From Candidatus Nomurabacteria bacterium (GTDB lineage Bacteria > Patescibacteriota > Minisyncoccia > Phycocordibacterales > UBA9973): a DNA stretch of 64,000 nucleotides. Position numbers and translations under genes: made by a program. The notes under the pieces were generated by a model. It saw only the letters and a list, made by a program, of their open reading frames with translations. It ran no database searches and was not told where the DNA came from. The DNA lies in the NCBI GenBank assembly GCA_963832025.1, contig CAWHSF010000003.1, forward strand, positions 294,606 through 358,605. Direction: 5' to 3'. Below, in pieces: positions 2,806 through 50,954 of the stretch. Numbering within the stretch: the first letter of the stretch is position 1; every line of letters starts with the position of its first letter.

Positions 2806-3075
2806 ATGAGCTCAATCATCAAAAACCCAAGAGTTACCGAAAAGGCTTCATTTGCCGCCGAACAAAATGTTTACACTTTTGATATTTCGCAATCTGCAAA
2901 CAAAAGAGAAATCAAAAAAGCTGTCTTTACTCTTTATAAAGTGCATCCAGTAAAAGTAAATGTTATGACTATTCCAAGAAAGAAAACAATGTCCCAGGGA
3001 AAGAAGGGCATGCGTGGTGGAGGAAGAAAAGCTTTTGTATATTTAAAAAAGGGAGATAAAATAGAATTTATATAA
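2806..3075 (+). CDS. rplW: 50S ribosomal protein L23 (upstream ATG at 2782 lies inside palindromic repeat, so 2806 preferred)
   Basis: SSIIKNPRVTEKASFAAEQNVYTFDISQSANKREIKKAVFTLYKV L23 signature. Confidence 0.88.
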   Translation: MSSIIKNPRVTEKASFAAEQNVYTFDISQSANKREIKKAVFTLYKVHPVKVNVMTIPRKKTMSQGKKGMRGGGRKAFVYLKKGDKIEFI

Positions 3076-3914
3076 TGAAAACATACAAACCGACAAGCAA
3101 ATCAAGAAGGCAAATGACCAATGTGAGCTACAGGGGAGTTTTGAGCAATACCACACCCACCAAATCCCTGACCCATGGTTTTAAAAGAAACGTCGGTCGC
3201 AACAGCCAAGGACGTATCACCATGCGCCACAAGGGAGCCGGACACAAGCGCTTGTATCGAGACGTCGATTTTATTTACAATAAAAAAAACATTCCTGCAA
3301 AAATAGTTTCTGTAGAATACGACCCAAATCGTTCCGCATTTATCGGTCTGGCAGTTTACAAAGACGGAGAAAAAAGATACGTCGTATTGCCGAAATCAGT
3401 CAAACCAGGCGATTCTTTTGTCGTTTCCGAAAAAGCCGAACTAAAACCGGGCAACAGACTCCCTTTGCAATTTATTCCGGTCGGAACTTTTGTTTACAAT
3501 GTTGAAATCAAACCGATGGGTGGCGCAAAGATCGGACGCTCTGCAGGAATTTTCGCCCAAGTTGTCGCAAACGCCGACGGATATACAAATATTAAAATGC
3601 CTTCTACGGAAATTCGCAAAATAAACGAAAAGTGCTGGGCTTGCGTCGGAACTGTTTCCAACGAGGAACATCACTTGGAGAATTATGGCAAGGCAGGACG
3701 CAGTCGCTGGAAAGGAATTCGTCCGACAGTTCGCGGAACAGCTATGAACCCAGTAGACCATCCATACGGCGGAGGTGAAGGACGCCAAGGGCGCGGAACC
3801 AAAAGACCAAAGACTATGTGGGGTAAAGTTACCGGCGGACGTAAAACCCGCGGACCAAAGAAATACTCGAACGTCTTTATTGTTTCTCGCCGAAAAACAG
3901 GAAAGAATAAATAG
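3075..3914 (+). CDS. rplB: 50S ribosomal protein L2
   Basis: GRNSQGRITMRHKGAGHKRLYR...GTAMNPVDHPYGGGEGRQ L2 signature. Confidence 0.95.
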   Translation: MKTYKPTSKSRRQMTNVSYRGVLSNTTPTKSLTHGFKRNVGRNSQGRITMRHKGAGHKRLYRDVDFIYNKKNIPAKIVSVEYDPNRSAFIGLAVYKDGEKRYVVLPKSVKPGDSFVVSEKAELKPGNRLPLQFIPVGTFVYNVEIKPMGGAKIGRSAGIFAQVVANADGYTNIKMPSTEIRKINEKCWACVGTVSNEEHHLENYGKAGRSRWKGIRPTVRGTAMNPVDHPYGGGEGRQGRGTKRPKTMWGKVTGGRKTRGPKKYSNVFIVSRRKTGKNK

Positions 3915-3955
3915 TTCGACGAACTCACTACAAGTAAAAAATAATAATACTTAAA

Positions 3956-4012
3956 ATTGGGACGTCGGACACCTGCTTTAGCAGATGTCCGACGTCTGGA
4001 GGTTTATGCACT
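3956..4012. repeat. palindromic repeat family A, copy A2 (island left border)
   Basis: GACGTCGGACACCTGCTTTAGCAGATGTCCGACGTCTGGAGGTTTATGCAC. Confidence 0.8.
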
Positions 4013-4098
4013 TGTGTAATTTTGCATAAATGTTATAAATGCATTCATATAGTTCTATTCATTCTGGCTTCATAATCCACTCAGAGGAGTGTTACACC

Positions 4099-4290
4099 TT
4101 GAAAGAAAGTGCCACAGTACTTCGCAACAACAACCAAAAGGCGGCCGTTGCGGCCAAGGTGTTTAAGGGGGGCGTTCAAAAACCCCAAAGACAAGATGTT
4201 GCTGCTGACATTCGTCGGCAGTGGGGCAAACCGAGTCACAGCAAAAGTCGCAACTGGCGTTGGGGAGTGGCGCTGGCTGGCATTGCATAA
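4099..4290 (+). CDS. hypothetical small basic protein (~63 aa, TTG start after GAGGAG RBS); first cassette of S10-operon island
   Basis: RBS gaggag 8 nt upstream of TTG; preceded by TTGCAT-17-nt-TATAAA promoter-like unit; followed by hairpins 4296-4360. Confidence 0.25.
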   Translation: MKESATVLRNNNQKAAVAAKVFKGGVQKPQRQDVAADIRRQWGKPSHSKSRNWRWGVALAGIA

Positions 4291-4451
4291 ATAAAGACAG
4301 CCGGAGCTGTCTAAAGAAAGGAGGGAAGGGCGTCGGGATTAACTCGGCGCCCTCTTTACATTTACTTGCATTGTCATAAATAAATGTTATAAATAAAAAC
4401 GAATTCGTAATTAGTGAGCTACGGATAGTAGCTCGCTTTGGGAGAGAAGAA

Positions 4452-4649
4452 ATGGCCAACAGAGGTTCAGCAGTTTTACCGCATCGTAAGCAAGTGAAAA
4501 CCACCATGACAACCTTGCCCCGGCAAACACAGGAACCAGATGTTGTGGAAGAGATCATCGGTCGAGTTTTTCACGGCGGACACAAGCCACAACTTTATCC
4601 ACCCAATCCACGACAACAGCAAGCAGCCGAAGAATCTGCAGAAGAGTAG
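4452..4649 (+). CDS. hypothetical 65-aa protein (second island cassette)
   Basis: ATG preceded by GGGAGAG RBS, own promoter-like TTGCAT..TATAAAT at ~4368-4398, strong terminator 4663-4715. Confidence 0.35.
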   Translation: MANRGSAVLPHRKQVKTTMTTLPRQTQEPDVVEEIIGRVFHGGHKPQLYPPNPRQQQAAEESAEE

Positions 4650-4662
4650 ATCGAATTTCAAC

Positions 4663-4715
4663 GGGCGGGGAGTCGATGTTTCGACACCCCGCCCGCATTT
4701 GCGTTTACTCGATTT
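4663..4715 (+). terminator. intrinsic terminator after 65-aa ORF
   Basis: GGGCGGGGagtcgatgtttcgacaCCCCGCCC + T-rich tail. Confidence 0.6.
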
Positions 4716-4728
4716 TAATATTTTATTT

Positions 4729-4780
4729 CCAGACGTTGGACATCTGCTAAAGCAGGTGTCCAACGTCAGTCCAACGTCTC
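4729..4780. repeat. palindromic repeat family A, copy A3
   Basis: CCAGACGTTGGACATCTGCTAAAGCAGGTGTCCAACGTCagtCCAACGTCTC. Confidence 0.8.
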
Positions 4781-4929
4781 TTCACTTTTGTATTCTTGTG
4801 TTATATTTTTTGTATGGTATAAATATAAGTAGAACTAGTTCCTGCCGCCTAGCAGGGAGGCGGTACAACCTCAAAGCAAAAAAAACAAAGTGGATGCGTA
4901 AGCACACGTAAGCCATTGAGGGTCAGGTA

Positions 4930-5109
4930 ATGCAGAAAGAAGTAAACAAAAAAGCTGATTTGTCTACGACGCCTGTCGTCAAGGTTTCCAGTAGCATCGA
5001 ACCGGTTGGAGCAGCAGAAGCAGCAGGGACATACTGCATCGTGTTCGCTCCGCCGGAAAACCGGAAACCGCGGAACTTGATCGTGTACGACAATCGAGGC
5101 CACTACTAA
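4930..5109 (+). CDS. hypothetical 59-aa peptide MQKEVNKKADLSTTPVVKVSSSIEPVGAAEAAGTYCIVFAPPENRKPRNLIVYDNRGHY (below ORF-track cutoff)
   Basis: GAGGG RBS 8 nt upstream of ATG; upstream promoter-like TGgTATAAAT ~4803-4815 and 5'UTR hairpin; intrinsic terminator 5120-5176 immediately downstream. Confidence 0.45.
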   Translation: MQKEVNKKADLSTTPVVKVSSSIEPVGAAEAAGTYCIVFAPPENRKPRNLIVYDNRGHY

Positions 5110-5119
5110 AGTGGCCACA

Positions 5120-5176
5120 GGGGTTCATCGGCAAGCCAGCTGATGAACCCCACCGTTATTTTTACCCGATTTTTTA
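5120..5176 (+). terminator. intrinsic terminator after 59-aa peptide gene
   Basis: GGGGTTCATCggcaagccagctGATGAACCCC + TTATTTTTaccCGATTTTTT. Confidence 0.65.
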
Positions 5177-5195
5177 TAATTTTAAATTGCGAAAC

Positions 5196-5223
5196 TTGCT
5201 TTTATTTTAAAGTATGTTATACT
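5196..5223 (+). promoter_or_regulatory. sigma70-like promoter TTGCTT-16-TATACT driving candidate sRNA
   Basis: -35 5196-5201, -10 5218-5223. Confidence 0.4.
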
Positions 5224-5229
5224 TTATGG

Positions 5230-5420
5230 TAGATAGCTCCTCCGTGCTTTTTGTGGAGGCCTGTCTCCTGGCAATTCGTGAGTGGCTCCTCCACTCCTCA
5301 GGAGTTGAGCGCTTTGGCAACACTCTGCGGATGCTAGGTTGTAACATTGCTCCATTTTTCTATTCTCCTTGGGTCTGAATTCGGGTTTTGCCTCCCGTAA
5401 TATCAGACCCTATTTTTTTT
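5230..5420 (+). ncRNA. candidate ~190-nt structured sRNA of unknown family inside S10-operon island
   Basis: No ORF; own promoter; multiple nested hairpins (CCTCC/GGAGG, GAGTGG-ctcct-CCACTC, CCTG..CAGG); ends in GGGTCTGA...TCAGACCC stem plus T8 terminator 5371-5420. Confidence 0.4.
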
Positions 5421-5433
5421 ACCTAATTTTTAC

Positions 5434-5511
5434 TTGACCCGGTAGTAGAACTTTGCGATATGTAAAATTTGCATCAAAGATGCGTCGCAAAGTCTCACTA
5501 CTGGGTTGACT
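5434..5511. repeat. repeat family C copy C1 (long hairpin TTGACCCGGTAGTAG...CTACTGGGTTGAC; 3' end = -35 box)
   Basis: ttgacccggtagtagaactttgcgatatgtaaaatttgcatcaaagatgcgtcgcaaagtctcactactgggttgact. Confidence 0.8.
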
Positions 5512-5533
5512 TTTCAATACTTTGTGCTATGAT
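5506..5533 (+). promoter_or_regulatory. promoter TTGACT-16-TATGAT; -35 box contributed by 3' end of repeat C1
   Basis: -35 5506-5511, -10 5528-5533, followed by GGAG RBS and ATG 5556. Confidence 0.5.
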
Positions 5534-5555
5534 ATTAGAGAAGGAGATTTGCACC

Positions 5556-5792
5556 ATGTCGACCCAAGCAACAAAGGAGCGGGTTGGCCCGTTCCTCTTA
5601 ATCGGTTCCCTGTTTGCGGTGCCGATAGGTCTAGCGTTCTTTTACGAGGGTTTCAAAATCCAGGGAGACACATTACTGTCCCCGTCAAAGCTGACATGCT
5701 TTGTAGCTGGCGGGCTAATGGCTCTCTTCGGCATCATCTTTTGCTGGAGACACAACAACGACGGGAGGTTGGACAATGAAAGGTGGCGCTAG
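5556..5792 (+). CDS. small 2-TM membrane protein (78 aa), paralog of following ORFs
   Basis: GGAG RBS; two hydrophobic helices; internal similarity CFVAGGLMALFGIIFCW ~ FWVPGSLLALVGGIYLLY in next ORF. Confidence 0.5.
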   Translation: MSTQATKERVGPFLLIGSLFAVPIGLAFFYEGFKIQGDTLLSPSKLTCFVAGGLMALFGIIFCWRHNNDGRLDNERWR

Positions 5793-5976
5793 GAGGGGTA
5801 CTAGTTTCAACGTGGGTGCTGCAGTTGCGGCGGTGGCGCTCGCGATGGTAGTTTTCATCCACGACGATGCCGCCAAAAGCGCCCCTGACTTTATCGTCAG
5901 ATTTTGGGTGCCTGGTAGCCTCCTAGCTCTTGTGGGAGGAATCTACCTGCTCTACCGCCTCATCGTTCACAAGTGA
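5776..5976 (+). CDS. small 2-TM membrane protein (66 aa), overlaps previous ORF, paralogous
   Basis: RBS-like aggagg; hydrophobic; terminator 5990-6036 downstream. Confidence 0.45.
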   Translation: MKGGARRGTSFNVGAAVAAVALAMVVFIHDDAAKSAPDFIVRFWVPGSLLALVGGIYLLYRLIVHK

Positions 5977-5989
5977 TCGTTTTCACAGA

Positions 5990-6036
5990 CCGGTACCTGC
6001 GCAAAGACGCGGGGCCGGTTTTCGCTTTTTATTTAA
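5990..6036 (+). terminator. intrinsic terminator (repeat D copy 1)
   Basis: accggtacctgcgcaaagacgcggggccggttttcgctttttattt. Confidence 0.55.
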
Positions 6037-6039
6037 TTT

Positions 6040-6067
6040 GACTTTCTTGGATTTTATGCTATGATCT
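6040..6067 (+). promoter_or_regulatory. promoter TTGACT-16-TATGAT (near-copy of 5506 promoter incl. gaggagat RBS)
   Basis: -35 6040-6045, -10 6062-6067. Confidence 0.5.
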
Positions 6068-6083
6068 TCTTGAGGAGATCTTT

Positions 6084-6551
6084 ATGACAACAACAAGGTT
6101 CGGAGGTTCTCTCTGCATCGGTAGAGAGGAACTTGTAATAGCTGCGGTGTTTGTTACCATGGGCTTGGCCTGCCGTGTATCGACAAAAAGCAGTCGTGAA
6201 GCTGCCACAATGGTAATTGTGGTGGGGGTAGTCGCATTGTTAGCCTTACTATGGCAGGGGGTGAGAAAGGCCATTTCCTCCATTCTTCTCCCAACGTGGC
6301 GTGTGGTACCCAGGTTCGCAATCGCTTCGTGGAAGTTTGCGAGGAAGGGTCCGCGATACTGGATTCAGATTGCGGCGGTTGGGCTAATCTTCATCGGGGC
6401 TTTTGTCCTTGTGAGGTTGGATTTCAGCAAAGGAACGTCACTGGCGACGCTCCTTTCTCAAGTGTTAGCGAGCTTCTCTATACTTATTGGAGCGGGTTCG
6501 TACGTTTATTGTATAGGAGTGTTCAAGTTTCCAAACAGGTCCCAAGAGTAA
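6084..6551 (+). CDS. 4-TM membrane protein (155 aa), looks like tandem fusion of the 2-TM unit
   Basis: gaggagatctttATG RBS; 4 hydrophobic helices; terminator 6570-6617 is a copy of the 5990-6036 terminator. Confidence 0.55.
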   Translation: MTTTRFGGSLCIGREELVIAAVFVTMGLACRVSTKSSREAATMVIVVGVVALLALLWQGVRKAISSILLPTWRVVPRFAIASWKFARKGPRYWIQIAAVGLIFIGAFVLVRLDFSKGTSLATLLSQVLASFSILIGAGSYVYCIGVFKFPNRSQE

Positions 6552-6569
6552 ATCGTTTCGTTTCAATTC

Positions 6570-6617
6570 GACCGGCACCCGCGCAAAGACGTGGGGCCGG
6601 TCTTCGCTTTTTATTTT
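6570..6617 (+). terminator. intrinsic terminator (repeat D copy 2)
   Basis: accggcacccgcgcaaagacgtggggccggtcttcgctttttatttt, ~90% identical to 5990-6036. Confidence 0.55.
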
Positions 6618-6736
6618 GAATATGCTATGTTTCTCAGTAGGATAGTTCTTTTGGAGAGCGGTCTCCTGACAGGAACTATCTCGTGTGATAACGGGCTCTA
6701 AGCGTTTAAGCGCGTCCGTTACCACACATTCCGCAA

Positions 6737-6780
6737 CCGGGAGCCAGCTGCTTTTGGCAGGCTCCCGGTCTTTTTATTTT
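6737..6780 (+). terminator. intrinsic terminator closing the island
   Basis: ccgggagccagctgcttttggcaggctcccgg + T-run. Confidence 0.6.
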
Positions 6781-6839
6781 ACGTGAAAAAATGGTTTTTT
6801 TATTTCAGCTTTTCGGAATAAGGGCAATATAAAATCTAG

Positions 6840-6868
6840 TTGACAATTTTTCCTTATTTGCTACTATG
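6840..6868 (+). promoter_or_regulatory. internal promoter TTGACA-17-TACTAT re-initiating the r-protein operon at rpsS
   Basis: -35 6840-6845, -10 6863-6868, 28 nt upstream of rpsS ATG. Confidence 0.5.
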
Positions 6869-6896
6869 AAACCAAGCTCGTAGCGAGCTTTTTATT

Positions 6897-7247
6897 ATGA
6901 CTCGAAGTATCAAAAAAGGATTAAATGTCGACGAAAAACTTCTCTCAAAGATTGTGGGCAAAAACCCGCTCGAGACACCAATGGTAAAAACTTGGAAAAG
7001 AGCCTGCGTCATTTCTCCGGAGATGCTGGGTTTTACTTTTGGTGTGCATAATGGCAAAACCCATGTGGAAGTTTTGGTGACCGAAGATATGGTCGGGCAC
7101 AGACTCGGAGAATTTTCCCCAACCAAGAAATTTATTAAACACGGAGGAAAGATGCAGAAAGAGCTTGAACAGAAGAAAAAAGAAGCGGAGATTACTGCTG
7201 CCAAAGGTGCGACAGCGGCTGCCGAAGATGCTAAGGGTAAAAAGTAG
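6897..7247 (+). CDS. rpsS: 30S ribosomal protein S19 with ~25-aa Lys/Glu/Ala-rich C-terminal extension
   Basis: RSIKKGLNVDEKLL...HNGKTHVEVLVTEDMVGHRLGEFSPTKKF S19 signature. Confidence 0.93.
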   Translation: MTRSIKKGLNVDEKLLSKIVGKNPLETPMVKTWKRACVISPEMLGFTFGVHNGKTHVEVLVTEDMVGHRLGEFSPTKKFIKHGGKMQKELEQKKKEAEITAAKGATAAAEDAKGKK

Positions 7248-7369
7248 AAATGAATCCCGTACGAAATCGCGGACGCATAAAATAAACAAAAATATGAAAA
7301 AGATAAAATATATTATAAATAACAAAAAGGACAACGAAGCGTAAGCGTACGCGTCCTATTTCGTACGGG
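7246..7369. repeat. repeat family B copy B1 (~120 bp: GC-rich palindromic ends around A/T-rich core), ends exactly at rplV ATG
   Basis: CCCGTACGAAATCGCGGACGCATAAAATAAA...AAAAGGACAACGAaGCGTAAGCGTACGCGTCCTATTTCGTACGGG. Confidence 0.85.
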
Positions 7370-9924: not shown

Positions 9925-9965
9925 CAGACGTTGGATATCTGCTAAAGCAGGTGTCCAACGTCTCC
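9925..9965. repeat. palindromic repeat family A, copy A4 (rplN-rplX spacer)
   Basis: CAGACGTTGGATATCTGCTAAAGCAGGTGTCCAACGTCTCC. Confidence 0.8.
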
Positions 9966-10806: not shown

Positions 10807-10887
10807 GGTTTGACCCGGGTAGTGAATTTTGGCGAAGCGCAAAGCGCAATAATAAATTATCGCCAAAATCTACTACCGGGTTTGACT
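10806..10887. repeat. repeat family C copy C2 (rplE-rpsN spacer)
   Basis: gggtttgacccgggtagtgaattttggcgaagcgcaaagcgcaat...atcgccaaaatctactaccgggtttgact. Confidence 0.8.
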
Positions 10888-31178: not shown

Positions 31179-31252
31179 CCGTCCTTAGCTCAGCTGGTTA
31201 GAGCACAGAGCTTATACCTCTGGGGTCCTTGGTTCGAATCCAAGAGGACGGA
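31179..31252 (+). tRNA. tRNA with anticodon UAU (Ile2-type AUA decoder), C1:G72 acceptor end
   Basis: Cloverleaf: acceptor CCGUCCU/AGGACGG, D GCUC/GAGC, anticodon stem CAGAG/CUCUG loop CUUAUAC, T CUUGG-UUCGAAU-CCAAG. Confidence 0.75.
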
Positions 31253-31267
31253 CAAGCAAATAAATTT

Positions 31268-39192: not shown

Positions 39193-39263
39193 CCTCCAGA
39201 CGTTGGATTGACGTTGGACACCCGCCAAAGGCGGATGTCCAACGTCTGGAGGTTTATCCACAA
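39193..39263. repeat. palindromic repeat family A, extended copy A6
   Basis: CCTCCAGACGTTGGAttgacgTTGGACACCCGCCaaaGGCGGATGTCCAACGTCTGGAGGTTTATCCAC. Confidence 0.8.
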
Positions 39264-39277
39264 GTAAATTTAAAGTG

Positions 39278-39364
39278 CGGAGAGAGAGGGATTCGAACCC
39301 TCGGTCCTTTTAAGGGGACGACAGTTTAGTAAACTGTTGGTTTAAACCACTCACCCATCTCTCC
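39278..39364 (-). tRNA. type-II (long variable arm) tRNA, Ser-like, anticodon loop UUACUAA (apparent ACU anticodon, atypical)
   Basis: rc: GGAGAGA-UG-GGU..ACC-A-ACAGU-UUACUAA-ACUGU-long arm-CGAGGGUUCGAAUCCCUC-UCUCUCC-G. Confidence 0.6.
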
Positions 39365-49701: not shown

Positions 49702-50954
49702 TTTCCTAATGCATTATGGTAAACTTCCTCTAGTTTTTTTACACTCTCGTGTATATCATATTTTTGAACCATCTTGAAGCTAACCTCACCCATCCTCTCT
49801 CTCAATTCTTTGTCTTGAATTAATTTCAAAGTTTGCTCGGCTAGGTCTTTAGGATCCAAGGTTTTAAACAAAAATCCGTTGCCATTCACAAAATAACGGG
49901 AAGCGCTCATTTTTGTATCGGAAATAATAATCGGTTTTCCACAAGCCATCGCTTCAAGCACCACCATACCTTCCAGTTCCGCGAGCGACGGCAAAATAAA
50001 AATATCGCAGGCATTAAAAGCCAAGATTTTATCTTCTTCACTGACCAATCCTAAAAAGGTGATATGTTTTCGCATTTTTAGATTGTCCACTAATTTTTCT
50101 AATTTATTTCGCAAGATTCCACCGCCCGCAATCATTAGATACACATTAGGATTTACTTTGAGTATCTCTGGTATTGCTTTGATGAGTGTATCCACGGATT
50201 TTTCCGGGAACAGACGCCCGACGAAAAGCAATTTTATTTTATCTTTCGGTATTTCAAATCTTTCGTAAAAATTTCCAATTGGAAATTTCTGAAAATGTTT
50301 CAAATTTATTCCATTGCTGATGACAATCGATGGCTGGTCACGCTTGTTTAATTTATGTAGCAGATTTTTTGCCATTTCGGAGGGATAGATTATTATTTCT
50401 GCTTTACTGTAAACCCACATCAGATATTTGTTCCATAAGCTAAATAAAATGGGCTGAATAATATGGGGGGTGTCGGCAAATAAATTTTCCGGTTGCGAGT
50501 GCGAATGCGCCACGATTTTTATATGAAGTGCTCGCGCTGCTTTGATGGCGACAACCGCTCCCGACATTGGCAGAATAATATGCACGATGTTTATTTTTTC
50601 TTCCAGAAAAACTTTTTTTAATTCATTCACTGTCGGAAAGGCTAAATGCCAGCCGTTTGATTTAGGAATAGGAATACTGCGATAATGATAAAGCCTGATG
50701 CCATCGTAATAATCGTTGTTCGCGTGTTCCTTAGAGGTTGCTCCGACAAAAATGACATGATGTCCTTGTTCTTTTAATAATTTGGAAAATCGCAAAATAG
50801 ACACAAGCACTCCGGCTTTGTCTCCGCCAATCGGGTCGCAAATCATCGCGATATTCAATTTCCCGGTAGTAGATTTTTGCAATGCAAGTTTACTTGCGCG
50901 CTCTGCGCTTTGCGAAAACTCACTACCGGGTTTTCCTCTTTTTTCTTCAGGCAT
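49698..50954 (-). CDS. GT4-family glycosyltransferase
   Basis: EGMVVLEAMACGKPIIISD (EX7E motif), two Rossmann halves. Confidence 0.85.
   Translation of the reverse strand: MPEEKRGKPGSEFSQSAERASKLALQKSTTGKLNIAMICDPIGGDKAGVLVSILRFSKLLKEQGHHVIFVGATSKEHANNDYYDGIRLYHYRSIPIPKSNGWHLAFPTVNELKKVFLEEKINIVHIILPMSGAVVAIKAARALHIKIVAHSHSQPENLFADTPHIIQPILFSLWNKYLMWVYSKAEIIIYPSEMAKNLLHKLNKRDQPSIVISNGINLKHFQKFPIGNFYERFEIPKDKIKLLFVGRLFPEKSVDTLIKAIPEILKVNPNVYLMIAGGGILRNKLEKLVDNLKMRKHITFLGLVSEEDKILAFNACDIFILPSLAELEGMVVLEAMACGKPIIISDTKMSASRYFVNGNGFLFKTLDPKDLAEQTLKLIQDKELRERMGEVSFKMVQKYDIHESVKKLEEVYHNALGK

Follow-up and report, generated by a model that had tools for sequence, protein, structure and literature searches.

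The window analysed here, a 64,000-nt stretch of a Candidatus Nomurabacteria genome (Paceibacteria, candidate phyla radiation (CPR)), carries the S10-spc cluster of ribosomal protein (r-protein) genes. In this cluster, rplB and rpsS, encoding L2 (uL2) and S19 (uS19), are separated by a gap of 2,982 nt (3914 to 6897) that appears to hold a series of very small transcription units. We interpret this gap, with a probability of about 0.7, as the lineage-specific content of an ancestral spacer between two operons. It would be a vertically inherited, fast-evolving array of micro-genes, and not the result of an insertion into an intact operon. A previous sequence-only reading of this DNA had described a cassette island of about 3 kb inserted inside the S10 operon. 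The size of the gap agrees with this description. The idea of an insertion conflicts with the organization of the same junction in related genomes, and most of the array recurs in a sister species, represented by contig L083.

The split S10 operon and its accessory-gene slot

The window L2 protein has its best matches in metagenome-assembled genomes of Nomurabacteria, with 84-93% identity. Eighty genomes were collected by L2 similarity and all junctions from S10 to L5 were measured. In relatives with an L2 identity of at least 60%, the L2-S19 junction has a median length of 994 nt and a maximum of 7,346 nt. In 36 of 47 loci it measures 300 nt or more, and in eight further loci of this group the full 8 kb following rplB does not contain S19. 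In contrast, the other 12 junctions of the same group have medians of at most 71 nt, and values of at least 300 nt are rare. In the outgroup (L2 identity below 60%), the L2-S19 median is 13 nt and none of 17 loci reaches 300 nt. A long junction with varying cargo is clade-wide, and the view of the gap as an insertion fails. The features that delimit the gap in the window are the following.

3075..3914, + strand: rplB (uL2), which closes the upstream half-operon; open reading frame (ORF) of 279 amino acids (aa), with Pfam Ribosomal_L2_N/C found on the identical product
6840..6896, + strand: rpsS promoter TTGACA-16-TACTAT (6840-6867), leader hairpin (6874-6890) and U run; conserved right edge of the slot
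6897..7247, + strand: rpsS (uS19), which opens the downstream half-operon; Pfam Ribosomal_S19

The last 60-100 nt of the gap are the only gap DNA conserved in other species. The conserved element consists of a promoter, TTGAC(A/T)-N16-18-TAnnAT, and, 3-9 nt downstream of it, a GC hairpin of 4-9 bp with a U run. It was found in 36 of 39 promoter-bearing relatives, including some with gaps of only 75-140 nt, and its stem varies by subclade with co-varying arms (AGCUC/GAGCU, CCCGC/GCGGG, CGCGC/GCGCG); both the count and the covariation come from a search that favours hairpins. Because the long junction is clade-wide and the promoter and hairpin are kept even at the shortest gaps, the S10 operon is ancestrally split after rplB, with its own rpsS promoter. 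The split concerns a Paceibacteria subclade of Nomura-, Kaiser-, Taylor-, Zambryski- and Vogelbacteria-like lineages. The promoter at 6840 noted in the sequence-only reading is thus real in the sense that it is conserved across the clade, which supports a transcriptional restart from rpsS onward. This restart would rely on a sigma70-type promoter and a short 5' hairpin with a U run.

Region 6868-6896 has a structural hallmark of r-protein leaders, a conserved structured element in the 5' untranslated region (5'UTR) with covariation. The hairpin could be such a leader and act as an attenuator or as a 5' stabiliser. In E. coli, the leader of the S10 operon is an L4-mediated attenuator. The rpsS leader resembles r-protein leaders by its conserved hairpin, co-varying stem and U run in an operon 5' leader. 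It differs from the E. coli S10 leader in that it precedes rpsS and not rpsJ, has only a 4-9-bp hairpin located 3-9 nt after the -10 box, and corresponds to no Rfam family. The rpsS gene itself has no obvious Shine-Dalgarno (SD) sequence.

The cargo of the slot is unrelated between species. It ranges from none to proBAC genes (proC/proB), diacylglycerol kinase, DUF5674 or DUF3298, and to housekeeping or restriction-modification genes. The only recurrent cargo gene found is diacylglycerol kinase (PF01219, ca 130 residues), located just upstream of rpsS in six species (L011, L024, L026, L028, L031 and L032). In several related genomes, the r-protein cluster is broken at rplB/rpsS and no rpsS is found within 8 kb. 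There, rplB is followed, for example, by genes for ComEC, serine hydroxymethyltransferase and arginyl-tRNA synthetase (L016), FtsW and SecD (L018), a DEAD helicase (L053) or DNA methylases (L055). In the closest Nomurabacteria (L003, L004, L006 and L010), the slot contains one to three GC-richer cassettes, each made of a promoter, an SD sequence, a tiny ORF and a terminator, with unrelated sequences. The interval is therefore a clade-wide accessory-gene hotspot, specific to the L2-S19 junction.

Hotspots of accessory genes acquired by horizontal gene transfer (HGT) have reportedly been described between core genes of bacterial pangenomes by Oliveira, Touchon, Cury and Rocha in 2017. As in these hotspots, a single core-gene interval gathers unrelated cargo in each lineage and the neighbouring intervals remain tight. 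The present slot differs in lying between genes that elsewhere form one r-protein operon, and in being delimited by a conserved promoter and leader. It also differs by the lack of mobile-element genes in the sampled cargo (20 ORFs from eight other loci, searched with Pfam; none in the window) and, in Nomurabacteria, by a cargo of tiny, GC-richer, single-gene units. Full-text literature searches returned nothing on a split S10 operon or on an rplB-rpsS hotspot in CPR bacteria.

Other observations were made on the same gene cluster. The rpsJ-rplC (S10-L3) junction is a second, weaker expansion point; it reaches 300 nt or more in 7 of 54 relatives and 4 of 14 outgroup genomes, with lengths up to 2.5 kb. 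uS10 (1007-1435; 142 residues) has a Lys/Ala-rich N-terminal extension of about 40 residues, and uS19 (116 residues) has a Lys/Ala/Glu-rich C-terminal tail.

The array of small transcription units

Sequence reading combined with folding of each candidate delineates eight co-oriented, putatively autonomous units in the gap, U1 to U7 and the rpsS promoter and leader. Each has a predicted extended -10 promoter and a strong predicted intrinsic terminator. The self-contained organization described in the sequence-only reading is retained, and its count of at least six units rises to eight with inclusion of a second unit resembling a small RNA (sRNA) at 6638-6780. Within the gap upstream of the rpsS promoter, the features are as follows (TM, transmembrane segments from hydropathy).

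3961..3996, no strand: family-A palindrome, copy 1; 17-bp arms, 2-nt loop, -30.2 kcal/mol, z -6.95; resembles repetitive extragenic palindromic (REP) elements
4011..4360, + strand: U1; extended -10 promoter TGtTATAAA (-10 at 4034-4039), SD GAGGAG, basic 63-aa ORF
4099-4290, + strand: U1 ORF, TTG start, 63 aa
4295-4312 and 4327-4353, + strand: double hairpin terminator of U1, from terminator scan and folding
4366..4712, + strand: U2; promoter TTGCAT-16-TATAAA (4366-4393), terminator 4662-4695
4452-4649, + strand: U2 ORF, 65 aa, acidic and proline-rich
4732..4767, no strand: family-A palindrome, copy 2, from repeat search
4796..5168, + strand: U3; promoter 4796-4823, 5'UTR of about 100 nt, 59-aa ORF 4930-5109, terminator 5120-5151
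5196..5420, + strand: U4; promoter TTGCTT-16-TATACT (5196-5223), putative sRNA of about 190 nt (about 5230-5420)
5439..5505, no strand: family-B inverted repeat of 67 nt, resembling miniature inverted-repeat transposable elements (MITE); -36.7 kcal/mol, z -7.81
5506..6034, + strand: U5; promoter 5506-5533, overlapping genes U5a and U5b, terminator D1 5988-6034
5556-5792, + strand: U5a, 78 aa, 2 TM
5776-5976, + strand: U5b, 66 aa, 2 TM
6038..6616, + strand: U6; promoter 6038-6065 (74% copy of the 5506 promoter), terminator D1' 6570-6616
6084-6551, + strand: U6 ORF, 155 aa, 4 TM; probability of being open by chance 0.0004
6621..6782, + strand: U7; truncated copy of the U6 promoter, TGcTATGTT (6623-6631, repeat D3), sRNA-like transcript of about 145 nt with three hairpins

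Promoter-like sites number 7 in the gap (3.9 +/- 2.1 in shuffled sequences) and terminator-like sites 11 (4.2 +/- 2.3 in shuffles). All terminator hairpins have folding energies of -21 to -33 kcal/mol (z -4.1 to -5.6) and are followed by T runs. Five units contain six SD-preceded ORFs, of 63, 65, 59, 78 plus 66, and 155 residues. In the window, every one of these ORFs has a GGAG/GAGG-type SD at most 16 nt upstream of its start, and the frames end about 7 codons or less before the terminator. When the sister species is included, 12 of 12 ORFs have an SD and stay open to within 12 codons of the terminator, with a chance probability of 0.0004-0.10 for each. The scheme of one promoter, strong ribosome binding site, tiny ORF and terminator per unit is supported by these observations. 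A terminator-tail motif, TATTTTTACCCRA, was considered as a signal for cassette boundaries and rejected; it is weakly enriched in the window (16 matches, 9 expected) and its matches are mostly inexact.

The base composition of the gap was determined by exact counting. Its GC content is 0.467, above the 0.397 of the window and the 0.39-0.42 of the flanks. The gap is therefore GC-richer, as stated in the sequence-only reading, but the excess is 5 to 8 points and not the 15 points, to about 55%, that had been proposed. Values of 0.50-0.55 are reached in the gap only at 5501-6600. The GC content at third codon positions (GC3) is 0.41-0.66 in the island ORFs and 0.29-0.44 in host genes. Another GC-rich patch of the window, at 25.6-27.1 kb, was considered as a similar cassette array and rejected, being ordinary coding DNA.

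The products of U1, U2 and U3 are hydrophilic micro-ORFs, which would behave as weakly constrained proto-genes. In the 5'UTR of U3 (4827-4929; 2472-2586 in L083), a conserved CCUC pairs with the SD GAGG of the same unit in both species. A hairpin inside this pairing shows compensatory changes. The CCUC-GAGG pairing may thus gate U3 translation, judging from the two sequences.

U5 and U6 encode the predicted membrane proteins. The TM counts of 2, 2 and 4 given in the sequence-only reading for the 78-, 66- and 155-aa products are confirmed by hydropathy. U5a and U5b overlap by 17 nt, the SD of U5b lies inside U5a, and both genes are also called on an independent contig of the Logan collection (L002). 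The two proteins would be co-translated and would probably form a hetero-oligomer or small membrane complex. This small membrane-protein module, to which U6 would have been added later, is likely the working core of the array. An AlphaFold model of U6 computed without alignment is helical, with five helices, and is consistent with the TM count; its confidence (predicted local distance difference test 56) is too low for a fold search. The view of the 4-TM protein as a tandem fusion or duplicate of the 2-TM pair was rejected at the level of sequence, since no similarity is seen (BLASTP E=21; coding DNA identity 41-42%, null 48%).

U4 and U7 are the structured RNA units. U4 folds into a 5' hairpin, a long stem with a CUCCU apical loop, a linker and a terminator (-68 kcal/mol, z -4.72). 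Its homologue in L083 has a matching three-domain architecture (z -4.91). The 5' half of U4 is 81% identical between the two species, with six base pairs changed on both sides. A 4-nt indel separates the two sequences; therefore, conserved coding is excluded. The sRNA of about 190 nt proposed earlier is thus upheld as a structured RNA with a retained fold. The CUCCU loop is conserved and complementary to the GGAG SD of the island mRNAs, through which it could damp their translation. Duplexes predicted between U4 and each translation-initiation region of the island do not outperform shuffled sequences, whether in the window or in L083 (z -2.4 to +1.5). U7 (6638-6780) folds with -67.1 kcal/mol (z -7.07), has a terminator at 6736-6769 and, from reading of the sequence, no SD-preceded ORF.

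Searches of Rfam with U4, U7 and the rpsS leader gave no match at gathering thresholds. The best sub-threshold matches have E values of at least 0.05 and lie on terminators or palindromes. A large known RNA filling the gap (23S rRNA, an intron, or an RNA of the OLE/GOLLD kind) was rejected, as Rfam showed none at gathering thresholds or with an E value of 5 or less and as promoters and terminators segment the region. A scan of metagenome contigs with 18-mers of U4 retrieved 15 loci; 14 are chance matches and one (L103) belongs to the L083 species. A covariance model built on the 5' domain of U4 detected no additional copy in related loci totalling 706 kb. With these two approaches, U4 is found in two species only.

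The protein products have no recognizable family, as had been noted from the sequence. Comparisons with Pfam, PHROGs, PADLOC, NCBIfam and the PDB sequences gave sub-threshold noise only. All products are singletons at 90% identity in a collection of 15 billion proteins. Word-indexed searches with U5a, U5b and a profile of U5a with its L083 counterpart f1 found only these sequences themselves. For U6, phmmer/HMMER searches of 1.84 billion representatives found U6 itself and one weak match (P0021, 858 aa, E 9.5e-7, with no matched stretch listed).

Inheritance and growth of the array

The L083 contig was retrieved by an exact look-up of the S19 protein. It comes from another sample and its r-protein genes show about 80% nucleotide identity with those of the window (L2 and S19: nonsynonymous divergence dN 0.01-0.02, synonymous divergence dS 0.81-0.87). 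Its 2.5-kb gap is syntenic, with units in matching order on a single 8-kb contig. The order is rplB terminator, A-like palindrome, a (corresponding to U1), b (an extra unit), a degenerate palindrome, c (U2), d (U3), e (U4), f (U5) and the rpsS promoter. Unit d also has a long 5'UTR and unit f consists of two 2-TM genes. U6, U7 and repeat D1 are all absent from L083.

Promoters are 67-82% identical between the two species, and the terminators of U1, U2 and U4 63-77%. U1 and unit a share 67% of their promoter and 67% of their terminator positions, with a coding sequence at 39%, the null level. The figures are 82%, 63% and 42% for U2 and unit c, which also share a conserved start context, ATGGCCAA. 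The U3 promoter is 76% identical to that of unit d, and its coding sequence 45%, again at null level. Overall, the coding interiors of U1, U2, U3 and U5b show 38-45% identity, with a MAFFT null of 48% for shuffled pairs. At a dS of about 0.85, we expect neutral sites to be about 49% identical, or unalignable. Thus, these interiors would have evolved at about the neutral rate. Despite this drift, promoters, SD and start contexts, terminators and open frames are retained in both species. U5a behaves differently from these interiors, with 58% nucleotide identity; it is orthologous to f1 (44% identity, alignment z 15, dN 0.64, dS 1.44). U4 and U5a are the best-conserved parts of the island.

Given the synteny with L083, and a similarity of the conserved parts close to that of the r-protein genes, any acquisition of U1-U5 would predate the species split. 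This comparison shows U1-U5 to be vertically inherited and the array to have been present in the common ancestor. Since then, selection would have kept promoters, terminators, SD and start contexts, open frames, U4 and U5a, while the other interiors drifted. The slot would now hold mutually insulated mini units, namely three hydrophilic micro-ORF units, one bicistronic 2-TM pair, one 4-TM protein and two sRNAs.

Two families of palindromic repeats probably invaded the array. Family A is a 36-nt near-perfect palindrome (GACGTYGGACAYCTGCT..AGCAGRTGTCCRACGTC) dispersed in intergenic spacers. Further copies are found at 9927-9962 (rplN-rplX spacer) and at about 39198-39261 (beside a tRNA-Ser gene) in the window, and at 121-165 and 1362-1400 in L083. 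Family-A palindromes had been thought to bound the island. They bracket only its first 770 nt or so (U1-U2) and, with copies elsewhere in the window, are dispersed REP-like repeats and not island borders. Copy 1 may stand in for an rplB terminator. The family-B element interrupts the -35 box of the U5 promoter at 5506, with a 5-bp duplication of TTGAC (5434-5438 and 5506-5510), and the orthologous site is empty in L083. Partial copies of family B are found at 10860-10879 (minus strand, rplE-rpsN spacer) and 50863-50882 (plus strand). REP elements, bacterial interspersed mosaic elements and MITE-like repeats are likewise dispersed in intergenic spacers; families A and B also lie within the r-protein cluster. 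In contrast to them, A and B occur, among 103 loci examined, only in the window genome and in its sister species, and no associated transposase was seen.

Direct repeats within the array bear on its growth. The two copies of repeat D1 (5988-6034 and 6570-6616), each of 47 nt, share 91% identity, and the changes between them preserve base pairing. The promoters at 5506 and 6038 form repeat D2 (74% identity), and the D2/D3 repeats are 73-74% identical. As a whole, the terminator-promoter junction 5988-6068 recurs at 6570-6642, and the sequences between the D1 copies cannot be aligned. The near-copies of promoters (5506 and 6040) and terminators pointed out in the sequence-only reading are therefore genuine, and they indicate local duplication of some regulatory modules. 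The simplest reading is that the block from D1 to U7 was gained once the two species had separated, either through recombination at terminator-promoter modules or through copying of these modules, and not by duplication of the U5 genes. The array would thus have grown, for U6-U7, by copying of junction modules.

Elsewhere in the window, at 31179-31253 and 39277-39364, ARAGORN called two notable tRNAs. One is a tRNA-Ile(UAU), whose anticodon is unusual in bacteria and may imply TilS-independent AUA decoding. The other is an odd tRNA-Ser(ACU) encoded on the minus strand, with a normal tRNA-Ser(GCU) and a family-A palindrome as neighbours.

Alternative explanations and significance

A horizontally acquired mobile cassette island, of the moron or integron kind and derived from a phage, a plasmid or a higher-GC donor, would account for the self-contained units with their own promoter and terminator, for the raised GC and GC3, and for the location in an accessory-gene hotspot. 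The absence of U6-U7 from L083 and their flanking by the 91% identical D1 copies are also what a recombinational insertion would leave. However, no integrase, transposase, att site, attC-like boundary or tRNA is found in or beside the gap. No DNA match was obtained among 50,697 phage and 72,556 plasmid records, IMG/VR contains no relative, and no protein homologue was found; a phage or plasmid origin was rejected on these grounds. U1-U5 are syntenic with L083, and their conserved parts resemble those of L083 about as closely as the r-protein genes do. Judged as a recent genomic island, the gap has a modestly atypical composition, but it is present in a relative and lacks mobility genes; only U6-U7 are lineage-specific with D1 repeats. 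We consider this explanation unlikely.

Phage morons are autonomous promoter-gene-terminator units located between conserved phage genes and often deviant in composition. The island units share their autonomy, their orientation along the flanking operon and their deviant GC and GC3, so this part of the moron idea put forward in the sequence-only reading is retained. The phage part is not, since the flanks are rplB and rpsS and neither a phage nor a prophage, no PHROG, phage or IMG/VR match exists, and several units appear vertically inherited. An integron array does not fit either. There is no intI and no gap ORF exceeds 155 aa, and the flanks are r-protein genes; the units are not promoterless, their terminators are distinct, and they share no palindrome except family A, with two copies in the gap and others elsewhere in the genome. 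Among known concepts, the array comes closest to accessory-gene hotspots located between core genes and to autonomous units like those of morons, to which it adds orphan content.

The earlier suggestions of a bacteriocin/immunity array and of a toxin-antitoxin (TA) system also found no support. A class II bacteriocin locus would have a precursor with a double-glycine leader and, close to it, a C39-ABC exporter or modification genes. Pfam and NCBIfam gave no bacteriocin, immunity or transporter match, and the gap contains no such genes. The TA idea would make the 2-TM and 4-TM proteins toxins of a type I TA-like or holin-like system, with the adjacent sRNAs as antitoxins. Type I TA loci include hok/sok, ldr/rdl, ibs/sib and tisB/istR, with toxins usually shorter than 60 aa and with one TM. 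The island has in common with them small hydrophobic proteins next to a conserved structured RNA, tandem units whose local duplication is reminiscent of ldr/ibs-type loci, and a 5'UTR in which the U3 SD is sequestered by the upstream CCUC. The strong conservation of U4 and U5a and the complementarity of the CUCCU loop to GGAG point in the same direction. Against this, U4 is co-oriented with all ORFs and is neither antisense to nor overlapping any of them, and its complementarity to the island mRNAs, the defining trait of a type I antitoxin, is not significant, as described above. In addition, the proteins are larger than typical single-TM toxins (64-155 aa, 2-4 TM) and match no toxin family of PADLOC, Pfam or NCBIfam. 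Such a system is improbable here.

The gap could also be mostly non-coding, with U1-U3 as structured sRNAs or transcriptional noise and their frames as by-products of a GC-richer sequence. U1-U3 have no homologues. Between the two species, the identity of their interiors stays at the null level, with indels whose lengths cannot be divided by three, and the supposedly coding parts are less conserved than promoters and terminators. Furthermore, two forward frames of U1 are open, and a minus-strand ORF of 131 residues spans U1-U2. Yet a GGAG/GAGG SD lies 5-10 nt before the start in every unit of both species, and the frame is open to just before the terminator in 7 of 7 hydrophilic units, with a chance probability of 0.03-0.10 each. 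The conserved start context of U2 also argues for translation. We regard a mostly non-coding array as rather doubtful.

A chimeric assembly, in which a GC-richer block would be foreign to the rplB-rpsS position, is extremely improbable. The composition does differ from that of the flanks and, in the independent Logan assembly, contigs L001 and L002 break exactly at the two repeat families, L001 inside the first family-A palindrome and L002 at the inverted-repeat element. However, L002 covers 5436-7276 at 100% identity over 1,841 nt and joins U5-U7 to rpsS, L001 joins rplB to the first palindrome, and L083 has the matching unit order in another species and sample. Taken together, these contigs support the assembly.

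Several points weigh against a vertically inherited array as the content of an ancestral spacer. The raised GC3 of the island ORFs is not explained by vertical descent alone and leaves room for an older foreign origin. The array occurs in only two species, plus the L103 fragment, and the arguments from covariation and selection come from one pairwise comparison. The independent contigs leave 3980-5435 uncovered. The promoters of U1-U4 and U7 were read by eye, and the scanner gave 10/12 only to those at 5506, 6038 and 6840. Because long spurious minus-strand ORFs occur in this GC-richer gap (131 aa, 4163-4558), open frames are weaker evidence here than usual. Finally, the anti-SD role of U4 is conjecture.

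On the reading that we prefer, a Paceibacteria subclade broke the near-universal S10 operon at one point and rebuilt the expression of the distal part with a promoter and a 5' hairpin. This split matters for the use of r-protein synteny in binning and phylogeny, and for r-protein autoregulation. In this clade, the resulting spacer is where accessory genes preferentially land and expand. Unannotated short genes abound in the small genomes of CPR/Patescibacteria. With its conserved shells and mostly unconserved interiors, the array is a tractable system in which to ask what such micro-ORFs are, be it functional, toxic or regulatory elements, or nascent genes. A bolder and tentative idea, to which we give a minor chance, is that the rplB/rpsS slot of Nomurabacteria acts as a micro-gene nursery. 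Durable promoter-SD-terminator shells would be selected and copied, and the ORFs inside them would turn over neutrally, occasionally yielding a U5a or a U4. If true, the slot would be a bacterial case, in the CPR, of de novo small-gene birth in progress, beside the operon with the highest expression in the cell.

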